From: Anaerolineales bacterium
GTDB taxonomy: Bacteria; Chloroflexota; Anaerolineae; Anaerolineales; UBA6663
Length of the DNA stretch: 32,410 bases
NCBI GenBank assembly: GCA_052387475.1
Contig: JBQTJD010000835.1
Coordinates: 1-32,410 of the forward strand
Direction: 5' to 3'
The position numbers were made by a program, and so were the translations under genes. Of this stretch, positions 3,071-11,238 are shown one piece after another (the first letter of the stretch is position 1; every line of letters begins with the position of its first letter). The notes beneath the pieces were generated by a model. The model searched no databases, was not told the DNA's origin, and saw only the letters and a list, made by a program, of their open reading frames with translations.

Positions 3071-3403
3071 ATGATTTCATTGATGCGTGCCATGCGAATA
3101 GCACGCGAGGCGCGCGGGTGGACGCAGGCAGAATTGGCTGCGCGGCTTAAAGTCTCGCAAGGCACAATTTCATTTTGGGAGAACGGCATCGAAGTGCCGT
3201 CGCTCGAACATCAAGTGCGGCTGGTCGAAGCCCTGCCGGAAATTCTGACCGACCTGGCCGCGCAGGAGTTAGGTCTGCTGGATCGTGTCCAGGCGCTAGA
3301 GCGAGCCGTCTTCAGCGGCAAGTGCGGGTGTGAGGGGTGCAATTGCTCGGCGGAGACGCCGGTGACTCCGGTGAGCGTCGCCGCTCGTCAGGGTGAGAGT
3401 TAA
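3071..3403 (+). CDS. XRE-family helix-turn-helix transcriptional regulator with a Cys-rich C-terminal tail (CGCEGCNC)
   Basis: WTQAELAARLKVSQGTISFWENG is a classic HTH_3 motif. The tail CxCxxCxC lies at residues 85-92 (nt 3323-3346). Confidence 0.8.
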   Translation: MISLMRAMRIAREARGWTQAELAARLKVSQGTISFWENGIEVPSLEHQVRLVEALPEILTDLAAQELGLLDRVQALERAVFSGKCGCEGCNCSAETPVTPVSVAARQGES

Positions 3404-3407
3404 TTTT

Positions 3408-3436
3408 TTGTTCCGCGATATTAGCGGACTTATAAA
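3408..3436 (+). promoter_or_regulatory. Candidate sigma70-type promoter/operator upstream of the first CooC-like gene (TTGTTC-17 nt-TATAAA)
   Basis: This is an AT-rich block in a GC-rich genome. About 34 nt (3403-3436) recur with high identity at 4341-4374, upstream of the second paralog (ATTTTTTG..GCG.TATTAGCrGACTwATAA). Confidence 0.35.
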
Positions 3437-3445
3437 GGTGAGGCC

Positions 3446-4222
3446 ATTAAAATCTTAATCTCTGGCAAAGGCGGCTCGGGCAAAACCACCATCGCCGGAA
3501 CACTGGCCCGCATCCTGGCCCGGCAGGGCCATCCGGTGCTGGCCATTGATGGCGACAGCAATCCCAATCTCGGCATTGCGCTGGGCGTCGCGCCGGAAAC
3601 GGTCAATGCCATGCCTGCCCTGCCACGCGACATGTTGCAGGAAGTTGTGGACGAGGCGGGAGACAAATCACAAGTCCTCAGGGTCAGCGTGGCGGAGATT
3701 GCGGCGCAGTATGGCGCGACCGCGCCCGACGGCGTTCGCTTGCTGGCGATGGCCCGCCTCGACCATGCGGGCGCGGGTTGAGCGTGCCGCGCTCATGCTA
3801 CGGTTCGTAGCATTCTGGCCGCGCTGCAGAGTTCAACCACTGAGATGATTATCACCGATATGGAAGCCGGGCTGGAACACCTCAGCCGCTCCACCACCCG
3901 CGCCTCCGACGTGATGCTGGTGGTGGCCGAGCCGTATTATCGTTCGTTGGAGACGGCCGGCCGGGTGAAACAAATGGCCGCCGAGTTGGGCATCCCCAAA
4001 ATCTGTGCCATTGCCAACAAAGTCCGTACGCCCGCCGACGTGCAGGCCGTCCAAACGTATTGCGAGAAGCATAGCCTAGAAATTCTGGCCACCGTGCCGC
4101 ACGATGAAAAACTGATTGCGGCCTCGCAAATCCCGCAGTCGCCACTCGACTTTTACCCGGAGTCGGAAGCGGTGGTAGCGGTGATGGAACTGGCGGCGAA
4201 ATTGCGGGCGATGATGAATTGA
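3446..4222 (+). CDS. CooC/AcsF-type P-loop metallochaperone NTPase, putative selenoprotein (UxC in place of CxC). It has a non-canonical ATT start.
   Basis: The two track ORFs 3536-3781 and 3845-4222 are in the same frame, joined by the TGA at 3779-3781. The family motifs present are:
- Walker A: ISGKGGSGKTT.
- DGDSNPNLG.
- GAG-[TGA]-A-C-RAHATVRSIL, which aligns to the CxC nickel motif.
- DMEAGLEHLSR.

No ATG, GTG or TTG lies between the upstream stop (3422-3424) and the P-loop. ATT AAA ATC at 3446 aligns with ATG AAA ATT of the paralog at 5226. An AAGGTGAGG Shine-Dalgarno lies just upstream. Confidence 0.75.
3795..3813 (+). promoter_or_regulatory. SECIS-like hairpin downstream of UGA 3779-3781
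   Basis: ATGCTACG-GTT-CGTAGCAT forms a perfect 8-bp stem. It begins 13 nt after the UGA, and GUU sits in the apical loop. Confidence 0.6.
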
Positions 4223-4345
4223 GGCGACGGGCGATTACGAAATCGGCTACTGGAACGATTTGCCCCTGTGGCAGATGGCCGCCGACACACGCGCCCACCG
4301 GGTCACAGCCCGCAACCCGAGTTGCAAGAGTAGAACGCCTATTTT

Positions 4346-4374
4346 TTGCGTAGCGTTATTAGCAGACTAATAAT
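4346..4374 (+). promoter_or_regulatory. Candidate promoter/operator upstream of the second CooC-like gene (TTGCGT-17 nt-AATAAT). It contains the palindrome TTATTAG-CAGA-CTAATAA.
   Basis: It is a near-duplicate of the 3403-3436 block, and the AT-rich dyad at 4356-4373 lies 25 nt before the ATG at 4399. Confidence 0.35.
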
Positions 4375-9305: not shown

Positions 9306-9322
9306 CAGATAACGCATAGCTG

Positions 9323-9358
9323 ATAGCAGATGGCAGATAGCGGTTCGCCATCTGCTAT
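9323..9358 (+). promoter_or_regulatory. Intercistronic hairpin between the SBP and permease genes
   Basis: ATAGCAGATGGC-12 nt-GCCATCTGCTAT is a 12-bp perfect inverted repeat followed by TAGCTTTTG. An alternative pairing of ATGGCAGAT (9330-9338) with ATCTGCCAT (9371-9379) would cover the permease start codon. Confidence 0.45.
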
Positions 9359-9377
9359 TAGCTTTTGACCATCTGCC

Positions 9378-10340
9378 ATGACGCAGTATCTTTTGCGCCG
9401 GCTCCTACAAATCCCACCGCTGCTATTGGGCATCGTCGTCTTCACGTTCGTGCTGATCCACATCGCGCCAGGCGATCCCATCGTCGCCCTGGCGGGCGAA
9501 CATGGCGACGCGGCTTACTACGCCCAGATGCGGGCGAAGTTCGGGCTGGATCGCCCCTTGCCGGAGCAACTCTGGATATATCTTTCGTCGTTGGCGCGGG
9601 GTGATCTGGGATATTCGTTCTCGCAGGGCCAGCCGGTGCTGAACATCATCCTCAGCCGCACGCCGACGACGTTGCTGTTGATAGTGACGGCGCTCGTGCT
9701 TTCGACCGGAATGGGACTCGGACTGGGGGTACTGGCGGCCCGTCGCCCTCACACGGCGATGGATGCTTCTGTAACATCAATCTCGCTTTTCGGCCACGCC
9801 CTGCCCGTCTTTTGGCTGGCGCAGATGATGATCTTTGCCCTGGCCGTTCAACTCGGCTGGTTCCCAACCCATGGCCTGACCAGCGCCCGTGAGCGGTACA
9901 CGGGCCTGCGCCTTGTCCTCGACATCGCTTACCACCTGGCTCTACCGGCAACGGCGCTGGCCCTGCATAACATCGCCATCGTTAGCCGCCTCACGCGCGC
10001 GGGGATGCTCGAGGCGCTGGCGCAGCCTTACACTTTGGCGGCCCGTGCCAAAGGGGTTACAGAGCGCTGGGTGCATTGGCGCCACGCCCTGCGCAACGCC
10101 CTGTTGCCAGTGGTGACGGTAGTGGGTGGGCAGGTGGGTTTTCTGTTTGCCGGGGCGGTGCTGACTGAGTCGGTTTTTGCCTGGCCCGGCTTGGGCCGCC
10201 TCTTGCTGGATGCAACCTACGCGCGAGATTATCCCGTCCTACTCGGCATGTTCTTGCTCATCAGCGCCACCGTCATCCTGGTTAACCTGCTTACCGACAT
10301 GGTCTACGCTTTTCTCGATCCGAGGATCCATTACACGTGA
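9378..10340 (+). CDS. ABC transporter permease (DppB/NikB-like)
   Basis: The N-terminus MTQYLLRRLLQIPPLLLGIVVFTFVLIHIAPGDP is typical of this family. The protein is 320 aa and multi-TM. Confidence 0.85.
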   Translation: MTQYLLRRLLQIPPLLLGIVVFTFVLIHIAPGDPIVALAGEHGDAAYYAQMRAKFGLDRPLPEQLWIYLSSLARGDLGYSFSQGQPVLNIILSRTPTTLLLIVTALVLSTGMGLGLGVLAARRPHTAMDASVTSISLFGHALPVFWLAQMMIFALAVQLGWFPTHGLTSARERYTGLRLVLDIAYHLALPATALALHNIAIVSRLTRAGMLEALAQPYTLAARAKGVTERWVHWRHALRNALLPVVTVVGGQVGFLFAGAVLTESVFAWPGLGRLLLDATYARDYPVLLGMFLLISATVILVNLLTDMVYAFLDPRIHYT

Positions 10341-10347
10341 GACTGAA

Positions 10348-11238
10348 ATGACCTCGAACATCCCGGAGCAGTTTGTCCTGCCCGTACCGGCGATACGGCG
10401 ATGGCCGCAATCGGCAATGCCTGGTCTCACTTTCCGGCTACGCAGGTTAAGCCCAACCGCCATCCTAGGCCTGGTGCTAGTGCTCGGTGTCGCGGTCATG
10501 GCGTTGTTTGCAGATGTGCTCGCGCCGGTAAGCCCCTGGTCGAGCGTGGCCAAACCCTTTCAGTCCCCTGGCCCAGCGCACCCTCTCGGCACAGATGACC
10601 TTGGGCGTGATCTGCTGGCGGGCATCATTCATGGTAGTCGCACTTCACTCATCGTTGGATTGACGGTGGCTGGCTTGTCTGCCGGGATCGGGATCATCCT
10701 GGGTTTGTCATCAGGCTACTTTGGGGGAGTCTTCGACGATGTCTTGATGCGACTGACTGAATTCTTTCAGGTCATCCCGCGCTTTTTCTTGGCTCTCGTG
10801 GCCGTCGCGCTTTTTGAGCCTGGACTGGTCACAGTCACGCTCGTCCTGGGTCTGACCTCGTGGCCGATGACAGTCAGATTATTGCGGGCGCAAGTGCTAT
10901 CGATACGTGAACGCGAATACGTGATTGCCGCGCGCGCCCTGGGTGCAGATCATCAATCCATCCTTTGGATGCATATCTTGCCGAACACCTTAACCCCCGT
11001 TATTGTCCACACGTCGTTGATGATTGGGCAAGCGATGTTGACTGAAGCCAGCCTGGCGTTCCTCGGCCTGGGCGATCCCAACCATATCAGTTGGGGCTAC
11101 CTGCTTAACAACGCTCAACCGTTTCTGCGCACTGCCTGGTGGATGCCCTTATTCCCTGGCCTGGCCATCGCGCTCGCCGTGCTCGGCTTCAACTTACTCA
11201 GCGATGGCCTCAACAACAGCTATTGGCAACGGGGTTGA
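10348..11238 (+). CDS. ABC transporter permease (DppC/NikC-like)
   Basis: HPLGTDDLGRDLLAGIIHGSRTSL is the typical DppC motif. The ATG at 10348 is preferred, because the 10177 extension overlaps the previous gene. Confidence 0.85.
   Translation: MTSNIPEQFVLPVPAIRRWPQSAMPGLTFRLRRLSPTAILGLVLVLGVAVMALFADVLAPVSPWSSVAKPFQSPGPAHPLGTDDLGRDLLAGIIHGSRTSLIVGLTVAGLSAGIGIILGLSSGYFGGVFDDVLMRLTEFFQVIPRFFLALVAVALFEPGLVTVTLVLGLTSWPMTVRLLRAQVLSIREREYVIAARALGADHQSILWMHILPNTLTPVIVHTSLMIGQAMLTEASLAFLGLGDPNHISWGYLLNNAQPFLRTAWWMPLFPGLAIALAVLGFNLLSDGLNNSYWQRG

Follow-up and report, generated by a model that had tools for sequence, protein, structure and literature searches.

A candidate selenocysteine-containing metal-chaperone gene set in a [NiFe]-hydrogenase maturation locus of an Anaerolineales bacterium

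In this work we analyzed a stretch of DNA of 32,410 nucleotides from an Anaerolineales bacterium (contig JBQTJD010000835.1 of assembly GCA_052387475.1, bases 1-32,410), which is hereafter called the window. Bases 1-12364 are read on the + strand, and the remainder of the window encodes unrelated metabolism on the opposite strand. The first part is a [NiFe]-hydrogenase maturation locus, marked by a HycI-type protease, and the structural genes of the hydrogenase would lie upstream of base 1. Within this locus there are three genes for CooC-like ATPases followed by one for an FmdE-like protein. Two of the ATPase genes (CooC-like 1 and CooC-like 3) and the FmdE-like gene contain an in-frame TGA. 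The three UGAs carry every computational signature of selenocysteine (Sec, U) codons directed by a selenocysteine insertion sequence (SECIS), and on the evidence of the sequences compared here they are most likely read as selenocysteine.

In-frame TGA codons of the CooC-like and FmdE-like genes

The features that concern these genes are the following:

3446-4222, + strand: CooC-like ATPase 1, motif G-A-G-U-A-C, predicted Sec at residue 112, ATT start
3779-3781, + strand: in-frame TGA, predicted Sec codon of CooC-like 1
3795-3813, + strand: SECIS-type hairpin of CooC-like 1, AUGCUACG-GUU-CGUAGCAU, 8 bp stem
4399-5229, + strand: CooC-like ATPase 2, intact P-loop, without CxC; best solved relative 3KJE, E 2e-7
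5226-5978, + strand: CooC-like ATPase 3, motif G-C-P-U-C-G, predicted Sec at residue 109
5550-5552, + strand: in-frame TGA, predicted Sec codon of CooC-like 3
5565-5582, + strand: SECIS-type hairpin of CooC-like 3, GCCGAGC-AGUU-GCUUGGC, 7 bp stem
5990-6586, + strand: FmdE-like protein with FHGHNC, predicted Sec52 and C-terminal Cys4 zinc ribbon; PF02663, 149 bits
6143-6145, + strand: in-frame TGA, predicted Sec codon of the FmdE-like gene
6158-6176, + strand: SECIS-type hairpin of the FmdE-like gene, AUCCAGUC-GUU-GACUGGAU, 8 bp stem

Gene callers split all three TGA-containing genes into two open reading frames (ORFs) each. Translation through the stops confirmed the in-frame TGAs at 3779, 5550 and 6143 that a first-pass annotation of the window had proposed, and gave ...LDHAGAG-U-ACRAHATV... 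for CooC-like 1, ...FDPGCP-U-CGISAEQLLG... for CooC-like 3 and ...IVESDM-U-TVDGIQSLTGC... for the FmdE-like protein. The gene order and the family assignments of that annotation agreed with the Pfam matches, and the overlapping or near-abutting gene ends it had described were also found. The stop codon of CooC-like 2 overlaps the start codon of CooC-like 3 (ATGA), an arrangement of translational coupling. CooC-like 2 had been called degenerate; its P-loop is in fact intact (GKGGVGKS), and only the CxC is missing.

The Walker A motifs of the three paralogues, SGKGGSGKTT in CooC-like 1, GKGGVGKS in CooC-like 2 and GKGGVGKTT in CooC-like 3, fit the deviant MinD-type motif GKGGxGK[ST]. Among solved structures, the top match of all three was the CooC1 protein of C. 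hydrogenoformans (3KJE; E 3e-35, 2e-22 and 2e-7 for paralogues 1, 3 and 2, respectively), a dimer that holds Zn or Ni at its interface through Cys112 and Cys114 from both monomers (PMC6006190). Paralogue 1 aligns U112-A-C114 onto these two cysteines, and paralogue 3 aligns C107-P-U109 onto them, with one further Cys following. In place of the C-x-C motif of CooC, paralogue 1 has U-x-C and paralogue 3 has C-x-U, and paralogue 2 lacks the motif. The Cys homologues of CooC-like 3 read GCPCCG, and the Cys forms of CooC-like 1 (n = 55) carry GCxC where the window has U-x-C.

The FmdE-like protein matched PF02663 with 149.1 bits (cut-off 22.9) over profile positions 1-132 of 133. The metal site of the FmdE structures consists of His-x-His-x-Cys and a second Cys; that of 2GLZ (His15, His17, Cys19, Cys55) held mixed Zn/Ni, and the structure paper reports that most family members adjoin metal transporters. 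In the protein of the window, FHGHNC spans residues 12-17, and the counterpart of Cys55 in 2GLZ and Cys61 in 2GVI is U52, a position at which 62 of 62 FmdE relatives from reference genomes have Cys. The alignments to 3KJE and 2GLZ thus uphold the earlier statement that the TGAs replace predicted metal-ligand cysteines, and Cys versions of these proteins exist in large numbers, hundreds of homologues having a conserved Cys at the place of the TGA.

A hairpin starts 12-13 nt after each TGA, the common offset already noted in the first-pass annotation. The stems are perfect, with 8, 7 and 8 bp in CooC-like 1, CooC-like 3 and the FmdE-like gene, respectively; the loops are GUU, AGUU and GUU, the distances from the UGA to the loop are 21, 19 and 20 nt, and the energies are -8.7, -10.8 and -9.7 kcal/mol. 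Compared with shuffled sequences, each hairpin has a z-score of about -4.5 (CooC-like 1, -4.5; CooC-like 3, -4.8). The published model of the bacterial SECIS (bSECIS) asks for a loop of 3-9 nt, a stem of 4-16 bp, a G in the first two loop positions, a UGA-loop distance of 16-37 nt and a minimum free energy (MFE) that is no higher than -7.5 kcal/mol, and the three hairpins conform to all of this. Since a comparable hairpin at the same offset follows 2.3-3.6% of the positions or TGA triplets in the window, three of three would be expected by chance with a probability of about 5e-5. A search of the whole window against Rfam at the gathering threshold gave no match, so the hairpins fall in no curated RNA family.

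TGA is the normal stop codon of 15 of the 28 genes in the window, CooC-like 1 and CooC-like 2 included. The code is therefore standard, and the possibility of a reassigned genetic code, which had been dismissed on the same ground in the first-pass annotation, was rejected. We also compared the genes with those of a related locus (L005), with which they share 76-88% identity. The ratio of nonsynonymous to synonymous substitution rates (dN/dS) was 0.07-0.19 before the TGAs and 0.12-0.28 after them (0.19 and 0.28 in CooC-like 1; 0.09 and 0.16 in CooC-like 3). Because these values are alike on both sides of the TGAs, the frame appears to be read through. Both Actinobacteria and Chloroflexi have been reported to decode Sec (PMC1794560).

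Relatives of the three genes and their hydrogenase context

The nearest named homologues belong to Anaerolineae, Chloroflexota. The cassette recurs in L005, where the three TGAs and their hairpins are all present. Between CooC-like 1 and CooC-like 2, L005 (3692-4495) carries in addition a gene of 267 aa that is absent from the window and whose only match is a sub-threshold ABM domain. A degenerate DNA pattern for the Sec form of CooC-like 3 (G-C-P/Q-TGA-C-G...E..LLG) was run on all metagenome contigs of the Joint Genome Institute (JGI); the corresponding pattern for the Cys form would be GGNTGYCMNTGYTGYGG.... Relatives of CooC-like 1 and CooC-like 3 are called CooC1-type and CooC3-type in what follows. 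The Sec pattern was found on 113 metagenome contigs, with 79-81 distinct sequences, and every one of the 113 matches was an in-frame CooC-like gene. The TGAs recur, then, in independent assemblies, which speaks against the assembly errors that the first-pass annotation had named as a possible refutation.

In the CooC3-type genes the codons of the hairpin read CCY GAG CAG TTG CTY GGG (79 distinct sequences), and the codons just upstream vary freely. TTG was present in the hairpin of 79 of 79 sequences (100%), compared with 7.9% of the Leu codons elsewhere in the same 96 genes. CTG and CCG did not occur in the hairpin at all, whereas elsewhere in these genes they account for 43.7% of the Leu and 54% of the Pro codons; GGG reached 89%, against 19% of the Gly codons elsewhere. 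It should be noted that these codon choices are not dictated by the search pattern. When 48 distinct sequences were aligned, 97.6% of the cells of the hairpin were paired, compared with 10-44% in slid controls, and the variation in the stem was restricted to C-G/U-G, G-C/G-U and one exchange of C-G to G-C, all of it compatible with wobble pairing or compensatory.

Four CooC1-type Sec forms were found (the window, L005, L108 and L077). They are 42-72% identical, keep the TGA and maintain a stem of 8-9 bp in place, with a compensatory change of U-A to C-G and with the loops GUU, GUC and GUG, whereas the 55 CooC1-type Cys forms have nothing comparable. A side observation is that L108 and L077 carry a Sec CooC3-type and a Sec CooC1-type gene together, as in the window, while on most other contigs only the CooC3 type is a Sec form.

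In the protein search with the FmdE-like sequence, C-terminal fragments at 94, 79 and 74% identity outranked the full-length Cys forms, and their contigs showed the same split genes. The TGA of the Sec FmdE is kept in L005, L006, L072-L074 (both tandem copies), L081 and P0122, that is, in at least 6 forms. L072-L074 combine the CooC3-type TGA with two tandem FmdE genes, both with a TGA, and in L081 the Sec FmdE adjoins a Sec CooC3-type gene. All 5 distinct Sec forms of the first comparison, the most distant at 63% protein identity, had the 8 bp stem, while a stem of at least 7 bp anywhere in the region occurred in 6 of 61 Cys forms. The MFE of the region ranged from -13.7 to -22.4 kcal/mol in the Sec forms and was -10.2 +/- 3.0 kcal/mol in the Cys forms, which as controls are distant reference-genome matches with at most 46% identity over the full length. 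We also observed that the tandem FmdE genes of L072 (1350-2741) and L073 (880-2271), 63% and 93% identical to that of the window, have exactly the same 8 bp hairpin sequence.

Taken together, the recurrence of the TGAs, the purifying selection and the frozen hairpin codons make an assembly error, a pseudogene or a split gene very unlikely.

Regarding the neighborhood of the Sec genes, a CxC-less paralogue lies immediately upstream of the Sec CooC in 66 of 73 assessable metagenome loci, and a third gene, of the CooC1 type, lies at most 1.5 kb away in 32 of 46 assessable Sec loci. Homologues of HypC were found in 36 and a HycI-type protease in 17 of the 113 Sec-CooC loci. Among the 45 Sec loci of at least 6 kb, 29 contain a hydrogenase or hyp gene, and 11 have the large and small hydrogenase subunits in reach. 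The typical order begins with hypE, hypD, an SIS protein, a HypC-fusion protein, hypC, the CxC-less CooC and the Sec CooC, and continues with a CooC1-type gene (usually the Cys form GCTC), two small membrane proteins, NifU/Rieske, HycI, a tetratricopeptide repeat (TPR) protein and the large and small subunits. In the actinobacterial loci a PadR gene stands beside the CooC1-type gene and hypC. The large subunit of L085 was closest to the group 1h structure 5AA5 (E 1.9e-135). In high-GC loci the genes were called with a filter on the GC content of third codon positions (GC3), since calling of the longest ORFs gave spurious ones.

The conserved core is a pair formed by the CxC-less CooC and the Sec CooC, usually accompanied by a third CooC, in [NiFe]-hydrogenase clusters that resemble those of groups 1h, 1l and 1m. 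Group 1m hydrogenase clusters have been described as typically containing a gene for a 'CooC-type Ni insertion ATPase', in an article that mentions neither selenium nor TGA nor the paralogue set (PMC9561532, Ray et al. 2022). The link to [NiFe]-hydrogenase maturation, which had been drawn from the window, is borne out by synteny in other organisms. No CO dehydrogenase gene (cooS/acs) was present among the Pfam-scanned genes of the window.

Cys-form CooC arrays adjoin NiFe large subunits as well, in L001-L004 and L007. In L003 a CooC pair stands beside two genes for family-5 solute-binding proteins (SBP5), two permeases and a hydrogenase whose subunit genes are five small ORFs apart, and in L007 three CooC paralogues surround a large subunit, with an ATP-binding cassette (ABC) importer. 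SBP5 and permease genes adjoin the CooC set in L003, L007, L109, L144, L164 and L180. FmdE genes adjoin the Sec CooC in a minority of loci, as a Sec form in L081 and L099 and as a Cys form in L093, L105, L133, L150 and L166. As an observation apart, L001 (3436-9022), from a metagenome-assembled genome of Dormibacteria, contains seven CooC-like paralogues in a row, all Cys forms or ligand-less, which adjoin PadR, CMD and a NiFe large subunit.

The first-pass annotation had considered seven genes as one module, from the XRE-type regulator to the importer. As a single conserved cassette this did not stand, because the full set was found only in L005, a relative at 94% identity; in L072-74 the methyltransferase is truncated and the binding protein is gone. 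Conservation as a system holds for the CooC set in hydrogenase clusters, where importer or FmdE genes are occasional neighbors. The 62 FmdE relatives from reference genomes hardly ever adjoin CooC or Opp/Nik genes.

Other genes of the window

The remaining genes of the locus are listed below:

5-490, + strand: HycI/HybD-type hydrogenase maturation protease; Pfam PF01750, 67.6 bits
494-742, + strand: HypC chaperone; Pfam PF01455, 71.3 bits
739-1647, + strand: EamA transporter
about 1641-2459, + strand: DUF6390 protein, 238 bits
2456-2737, + strand: small gene, frameshifted
2761-3054, + strand: muconolactone-isomerase-like protein
3071-3403, + strand: XRE-type helix-turn-helix (HTH) protein with a C-terminal CxCxxCxC tail (CGCEGCNC); Pfam HTH_3, 50.7 bits
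6589-7611, + strand: family-2 S-adenosylmethionine (SAM) methyltransferase with dimerisation domain; Pfam
7641-9305, + strand: family-5 solute-binding lipoprotein (SBP_bac_5) of an Opp/Dpp/Nik-type importer; PF00496, 320 bits
9378-10340, + strand: ABC permease 1; Pfam BPD_transp_1 and its N-terminal domain
10348-11238, + strand: ABC permease 2; Pfam
11723-12364, + strand: hypE 3' remnant, residues 153-365, ending in PRIC; Pfam AIRS_C only; 87% identity over 11723-12361 in tblastn with the intact HypE of L005

The placement of the module between HycI and HypC on one side and a hypE remnant on the other was confirmed by Pfam and by tblastn with the HypE of L005. The DUF6390 protein (1641-2459), which lies inside the hyp locus, has a faint HypC-like match at its C-terminus (16.5 bits). 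The idea that it is a relative of the 240-aa HypC-fusion protein of the actinobacterial clusters was rejected, as there is no similarity between them.

The Cys tail of the XRE-type protein is identical in L005. Two metagenome proteins, P0311 and P0335, are natural fusions of an XRE domain, a CxCxxCxC tail and a Cys-form CooC1-type ATPase, and such fusions link the XRE protein in function with paralogue 1. The protein is a candidate for a regulator that senses metal or for a partner of CooC-like 1.

The best solved relative of the methyltransferase is the S-methyltransferase DsyB (7WDQ, E 4e-35). The gene is intact in L005 and is cut to 155 aa, the dimerisation domain, in L072-74, where the permeases follow directly and the binding protein is missing; it was present in 1 of the 113 metagenome Sec-CooC loci. 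From this distribution the methyltransferase appears to be a clade-specific passenger outside the conserved core. In L008 a Cys-form FmdE occurs with different methyltransferases and three Opp-type importers. No subunit of formylmethanofuran dehydrogenase was found among the Pfam-scanned genes of the window.

The importer had been described as of nickel/peptide type. A binding protein and two permeases are indeed there, and the binding protein misses the NCBIfam cut-off for NikA (TIGR02294; 173.6 bits, cut-off 393) as well as that for Opp4A (185 bits, cut-off 650). Genes for the importer ATPase are present in L007, L008 and L109, and there is none after the permeases in L072-74. The binding protein has a long Ala/Pro/Thr linker after its lipoprotein signal, which together with the nearest named homologues would suggest an origin in Chloroflexota.

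Two observations concern the rest of the window. Two adjoining genes at 20123-23385 (- strand), coding for proteins of 534 and 524 aa, have no Pfam match. This pair is flanked by a CoA-ligase/AllG (oxamate carbamoyltransferase-like) block and by an isochorismatase with a GntR regulator. Finally, a small Cys-rich DUF326 protein (25313-25702, - strand) adjoins a large FHA/PD40 beta-propeller protein (25848-28400).

Interpretation and rival explanations

The reading that we favor, with rather more confidence than doubt, is that the region encodes a chaperone set for nickel (a soft metal) in [NiFe]-hydrogenase maturation, in which three metal-ligand cysteines have been replaced by selenocysteine. 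As for the cargo, nickel is what we infer. In such a set, the Opp/Nik-type ABC importer would import nickel, probably as a chelate, and the FmdE-like dimer would hold it in a His2-Cys-Sec site, between the importer and the MinD-type ATPases that could then take it over. CooC-like 3, with three ligands from one chain (C-P-U-C), would probably form a hetero-dimer with the ligand-less and translationally coupled CooC-like 2, and CooC-like 1 (U-x-C) would probably form a metal-bridged dimer similar to that of CooC. Through ATP binding and hydrolysis the dimers would change state and hand nickel over to the large subunit ahead of its cleavage by HycI; the set would act beside or instead of HypA/HypB. 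The XRE protein with its Cys tail may sense the metal or dock on CooC-like 1. A selenolate, a soft ligand that exchanges quickly and is completely ionised at neutral pH, would allow tighter capture and faster hand-over of scarce nickel.

There are several points that weigh against this proposal. A tRNA search found no tRNA gene of any kind in the window and no gene for tRNA-Sec in any of 187 loci, and neither SelB nor SelD was found in the window or the fetched loci with E. coli queries; none of selA, selB, selC and selD lies within the 32 kb window or the fetched loci. The covariation of the hairpins is mostly conservation, and in the CooC3 type one pair is changed on both sides. The identity of the metal is reached by inference, and MinD-type relatives such as Mrp/ApbC carry Fe-S clusters, not nickel. 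The best solved relatives of the binding protein are peptide-type binders, with those of NikA type lower, and the proposal does not explain the methyltransferase. HypA/HypB were found in 1 of the 113 loci (short loci, searched with approximate E. coli queries), and they may simply be encoded elsewhere.

Furthermore, this copy of the locus shows signs of decay. CooC-like 1 has no in-frame ATG, GTG or TTG after the upstream stop, and its only sensible start is the ATT at 3446, behind AAAGGTGAGG (3422-3460), which corresponds to an ATG in L005. In comparison with L005, hypD and the first 152 codons of hypE have been lost, and the about 480 bases before the hypE remnant match nothing; since L005 has an intact hypD-hypE upstream of the cassette, the locus of the window has been rearranged. 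With E. coli queries, hypA and hypB were absent from the window, and no homologue of an ABC ATPase was found anywhere in its 32 kb. The small gene at 2456-2737 is frameshifted with respect to L005, with residues 1-29 in the frame of 2466-2552 and residues 22-97 in that of 2528-2755, which makes it either a pseudogene or the product of a sequencing error. The three selenoprotein-candidate genes themselves are intact.

Some of these defects (the frameshift, the hypE remnant and the ATT start), together with the splitting of all three genes by the gene callers and the 6 bp version of the hairpin that the closest Cys-form FmdE retains, could suggest that the TGAs are true stops in split genes, pseudogenes or misassembled sequences and that the hairpins are by-products of coding. 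We regard this as very improbable. The TGAs are shared by many independent assemblies and the 113 metagenome contigs, both halves of the genes are in frame under purifying selection, codon freezing is limited to the hairpin, and three hairpins would rarely coincide by chance, as calculated above; in addition, a stop would remove a metal ligand and bisect a single-domain ATPase. There is also little probability that the UGAs are recoded to a residue other than Sec, either Cys by a SelB-like route or the product of near-cognate read-through. The computed evidence concerns recoding and an RNA signal and not the chemistry of the residue, and no Sec machinery was seen in the window or the fetched loci. 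Nevertheless, the hairpins fit a model derived from genuine Sec genes, G-U loop included, homologues have Cys at the recoded positions without exception, as in the classic Sec/Cys pair, and Sec decoding occurs in both of the phyla concerned (PMC1794560).

If the three proteins are real selenoproteins, they may carry another cargo or play another role: the CooC paralogues could carry or assemble Fe-S clusters, Zn or Co for the small subunit of the hydrogenase or for a different enzyme, or act as nucleotide-switch regulators. This we hold to be possible, with clearly less conviction than the delivery of nickel. The MinD/ParA/Mrp family includes Fe-S carriers, and weak NCBIfam matches to MrpORP and ApbC were obtained; the clusters also hold NifU-like and Rieske proteins, the crystal sites of CooC and FmdE held zinc besides nickel, and the binding protein is not specifically NikA-like. 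On the other hand, the nickel chaperone CooC is the best solved relative of all three paralogues and its ligands align residue for residue, Opp/Nik-type importers recur beside the CooC set, nickel was seen in the FmdE crystal site, and the published annotation of the cluster gene is that of a Ni insertion ATPase (PMC9561532). The first-pass annotation had offered a selenium or metalloid handling and methylation pathway as its alternative, in which a compound of Se, As or S would enter through the importer, be bound by the Sec/Cys proteins and be methylated by the methyltransferase. One weak point in favor of it was found, the relationship of the methyltransferase to the S-methyltransferase DsyB; besides, methyltransferases flank the Cys-form FmdE and the three Opp-type importers of L008, and known multi-selenoprotein operons (SAO, arsenite methyltransferase fusions) handle organometals and metalloids. 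However, a single one of the 113 Sec-CooC loci has the methyltransferase, the gene is cut short in the closest relatives, the conserved neighbors are hydrogenase and hyp genes, and no NCBIfam model for ArsM, SAO or others was matched above its cut-off, so that such a pathway seems improbable to us.

Coming back to a nickel chaperone set, its parts can be compared with several known systems. With CooC, the ATP-dependent chaperone that inserts nickel into anaerobic CO dehydrogenase (3KJE; CooC of R. rubrum), the paralogues share the MinD-type fold, the deviant Walker A motif and the exact alignment to Cys112-x-Cys114. They differ from it in the predicted Sec ligand (U-x-C in paralogue 1; C-x-U and an extra Cys in paralogue 3), in the ligand-less paralogue 2 and in the organization as a three-gene set; moreover, no CO dehydrogenase is near, and the linked enzyme is a [NiFe] hydrogenase. 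The group 1m clusters of PMC9561532 and the metagenome Sec loci have in common adjacent small and large subunits, HybD/HycI, NifU-like and TPR proteins and two single-helix proteins (85-90 aa), whereas the hydrogenase structural genes of our locus would lie outside the window. Delivery by HypA/HypB, including the Mrp/MinD-type HypB of Thermococcus (3VX3), would be the same role as the one proposed here. 3VX3 is a weak sequence match, both kinds of HypB are far more distant from the paralogues than CooC is, and no HypA partner was seen; the replacement of HypB/HypA by a CooC set is a lead. With the FmdE family (PF02663; 2GLZ, 2GVI, 3D00) the FmdE-like protein shares the full-length match, FHGHxC, the position of the second ligand and the C-terminal Cys4 zinc ribbon. 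It differs in that its second ligand is a predicted Sec and in that its neighbors are CooC ATPases, with no formylmethanofuran dehydrogenase nearby.

Among known selenoproteins and operons with metal sites (CobW-related, CopZ-like, SAO, Tso), the replacement of a Cys ligand by Sec in a metallochaperone-like protein is a feature shared with the present candidates, and the operons of SAO/Tso type also have several selenoprotein genes in one operon beside an ABC transporter. The protein families are different, however, and the target proposed here is hydrogenase maturation instead of detoxification. A 2026 review counts 119 prokaryotic selenoprotein families, including a CobW-related chaperone, CopZ-like proteins and the SAO and Tso operons; families of CooC/CbiA type and FmdE type are absent from its list, which answers, for this list, the question about selenoprotein catalogues that the first-pass annotation had raised. 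NCBIfam has no selenoprotein model for either family, and none of its models reaches the cut-off for the three candidates. We found no relevant description in the literature on selenoproteins together with CooC, FmdE or 'CO dehydrogenase maturation factor', a search whose coverage left out many subscription papers; the matches to "CooC" in PMC5424206 were merely the word 'cooccurrence'. A 2025 review of the assembly of the [NiFe] cofactor mentions no CooC or MinD-type factor. The exchange of Sec and Cys at a metal site and the presence of a CooC-type gene in hydrogenase clusters are already known. New here are the Sec forms and how abundant they are, together with the arrangement of the paralogues and the dependence on selenium that they imply.

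As to what these elements mean, the known selenoproteins would gain two families (FmdE and, with two subtypes, CooC), and these would be among the few with Sec as a ligand in metal-trafficking proteins rather than in redox catalysts. With SAO and Tso as the first two, the genes of the window would make up a third operon that encodes several selenoproteins. CooC-type genes, hitherto seen only in cluster diagrams, now present themselves as a conserved paralogue set with a ligand-less partner and often one selenoprotein member. As far as annotation goes, gene callers have cut these genes into paired fragments on more than 100 public contigs.

The set is, in addition, a candidate for the nickel supply of hydrogenases that scavenge atmospheric H2, and as such it predicts a selenium requirement. 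Because the Sec CooC occurs in 113 contigs, often beside [NiFe]-hydrogenase genes, selenium may be needed for those enzymes. A more far-reaching proposal, which we make tentatively and would not expect to hold in full, is that the oxygen-insensitive, high-affinity [NiFe] hydrogenases of groups 1h, 1l and 1m in many aerobic soil Actinobacteriota/Chloroflexota normally mature through, and require, a Sec-dependent nickel route (CooC-type ATPases with or without FmdE) that replaces HypA/HypB. Selenium may then be an unnoticed requirement for building these hydrogenases and, if the proposal is true, the oxidation of atmospheric H2 in nutrient-poor soils would depend on trace selenium.

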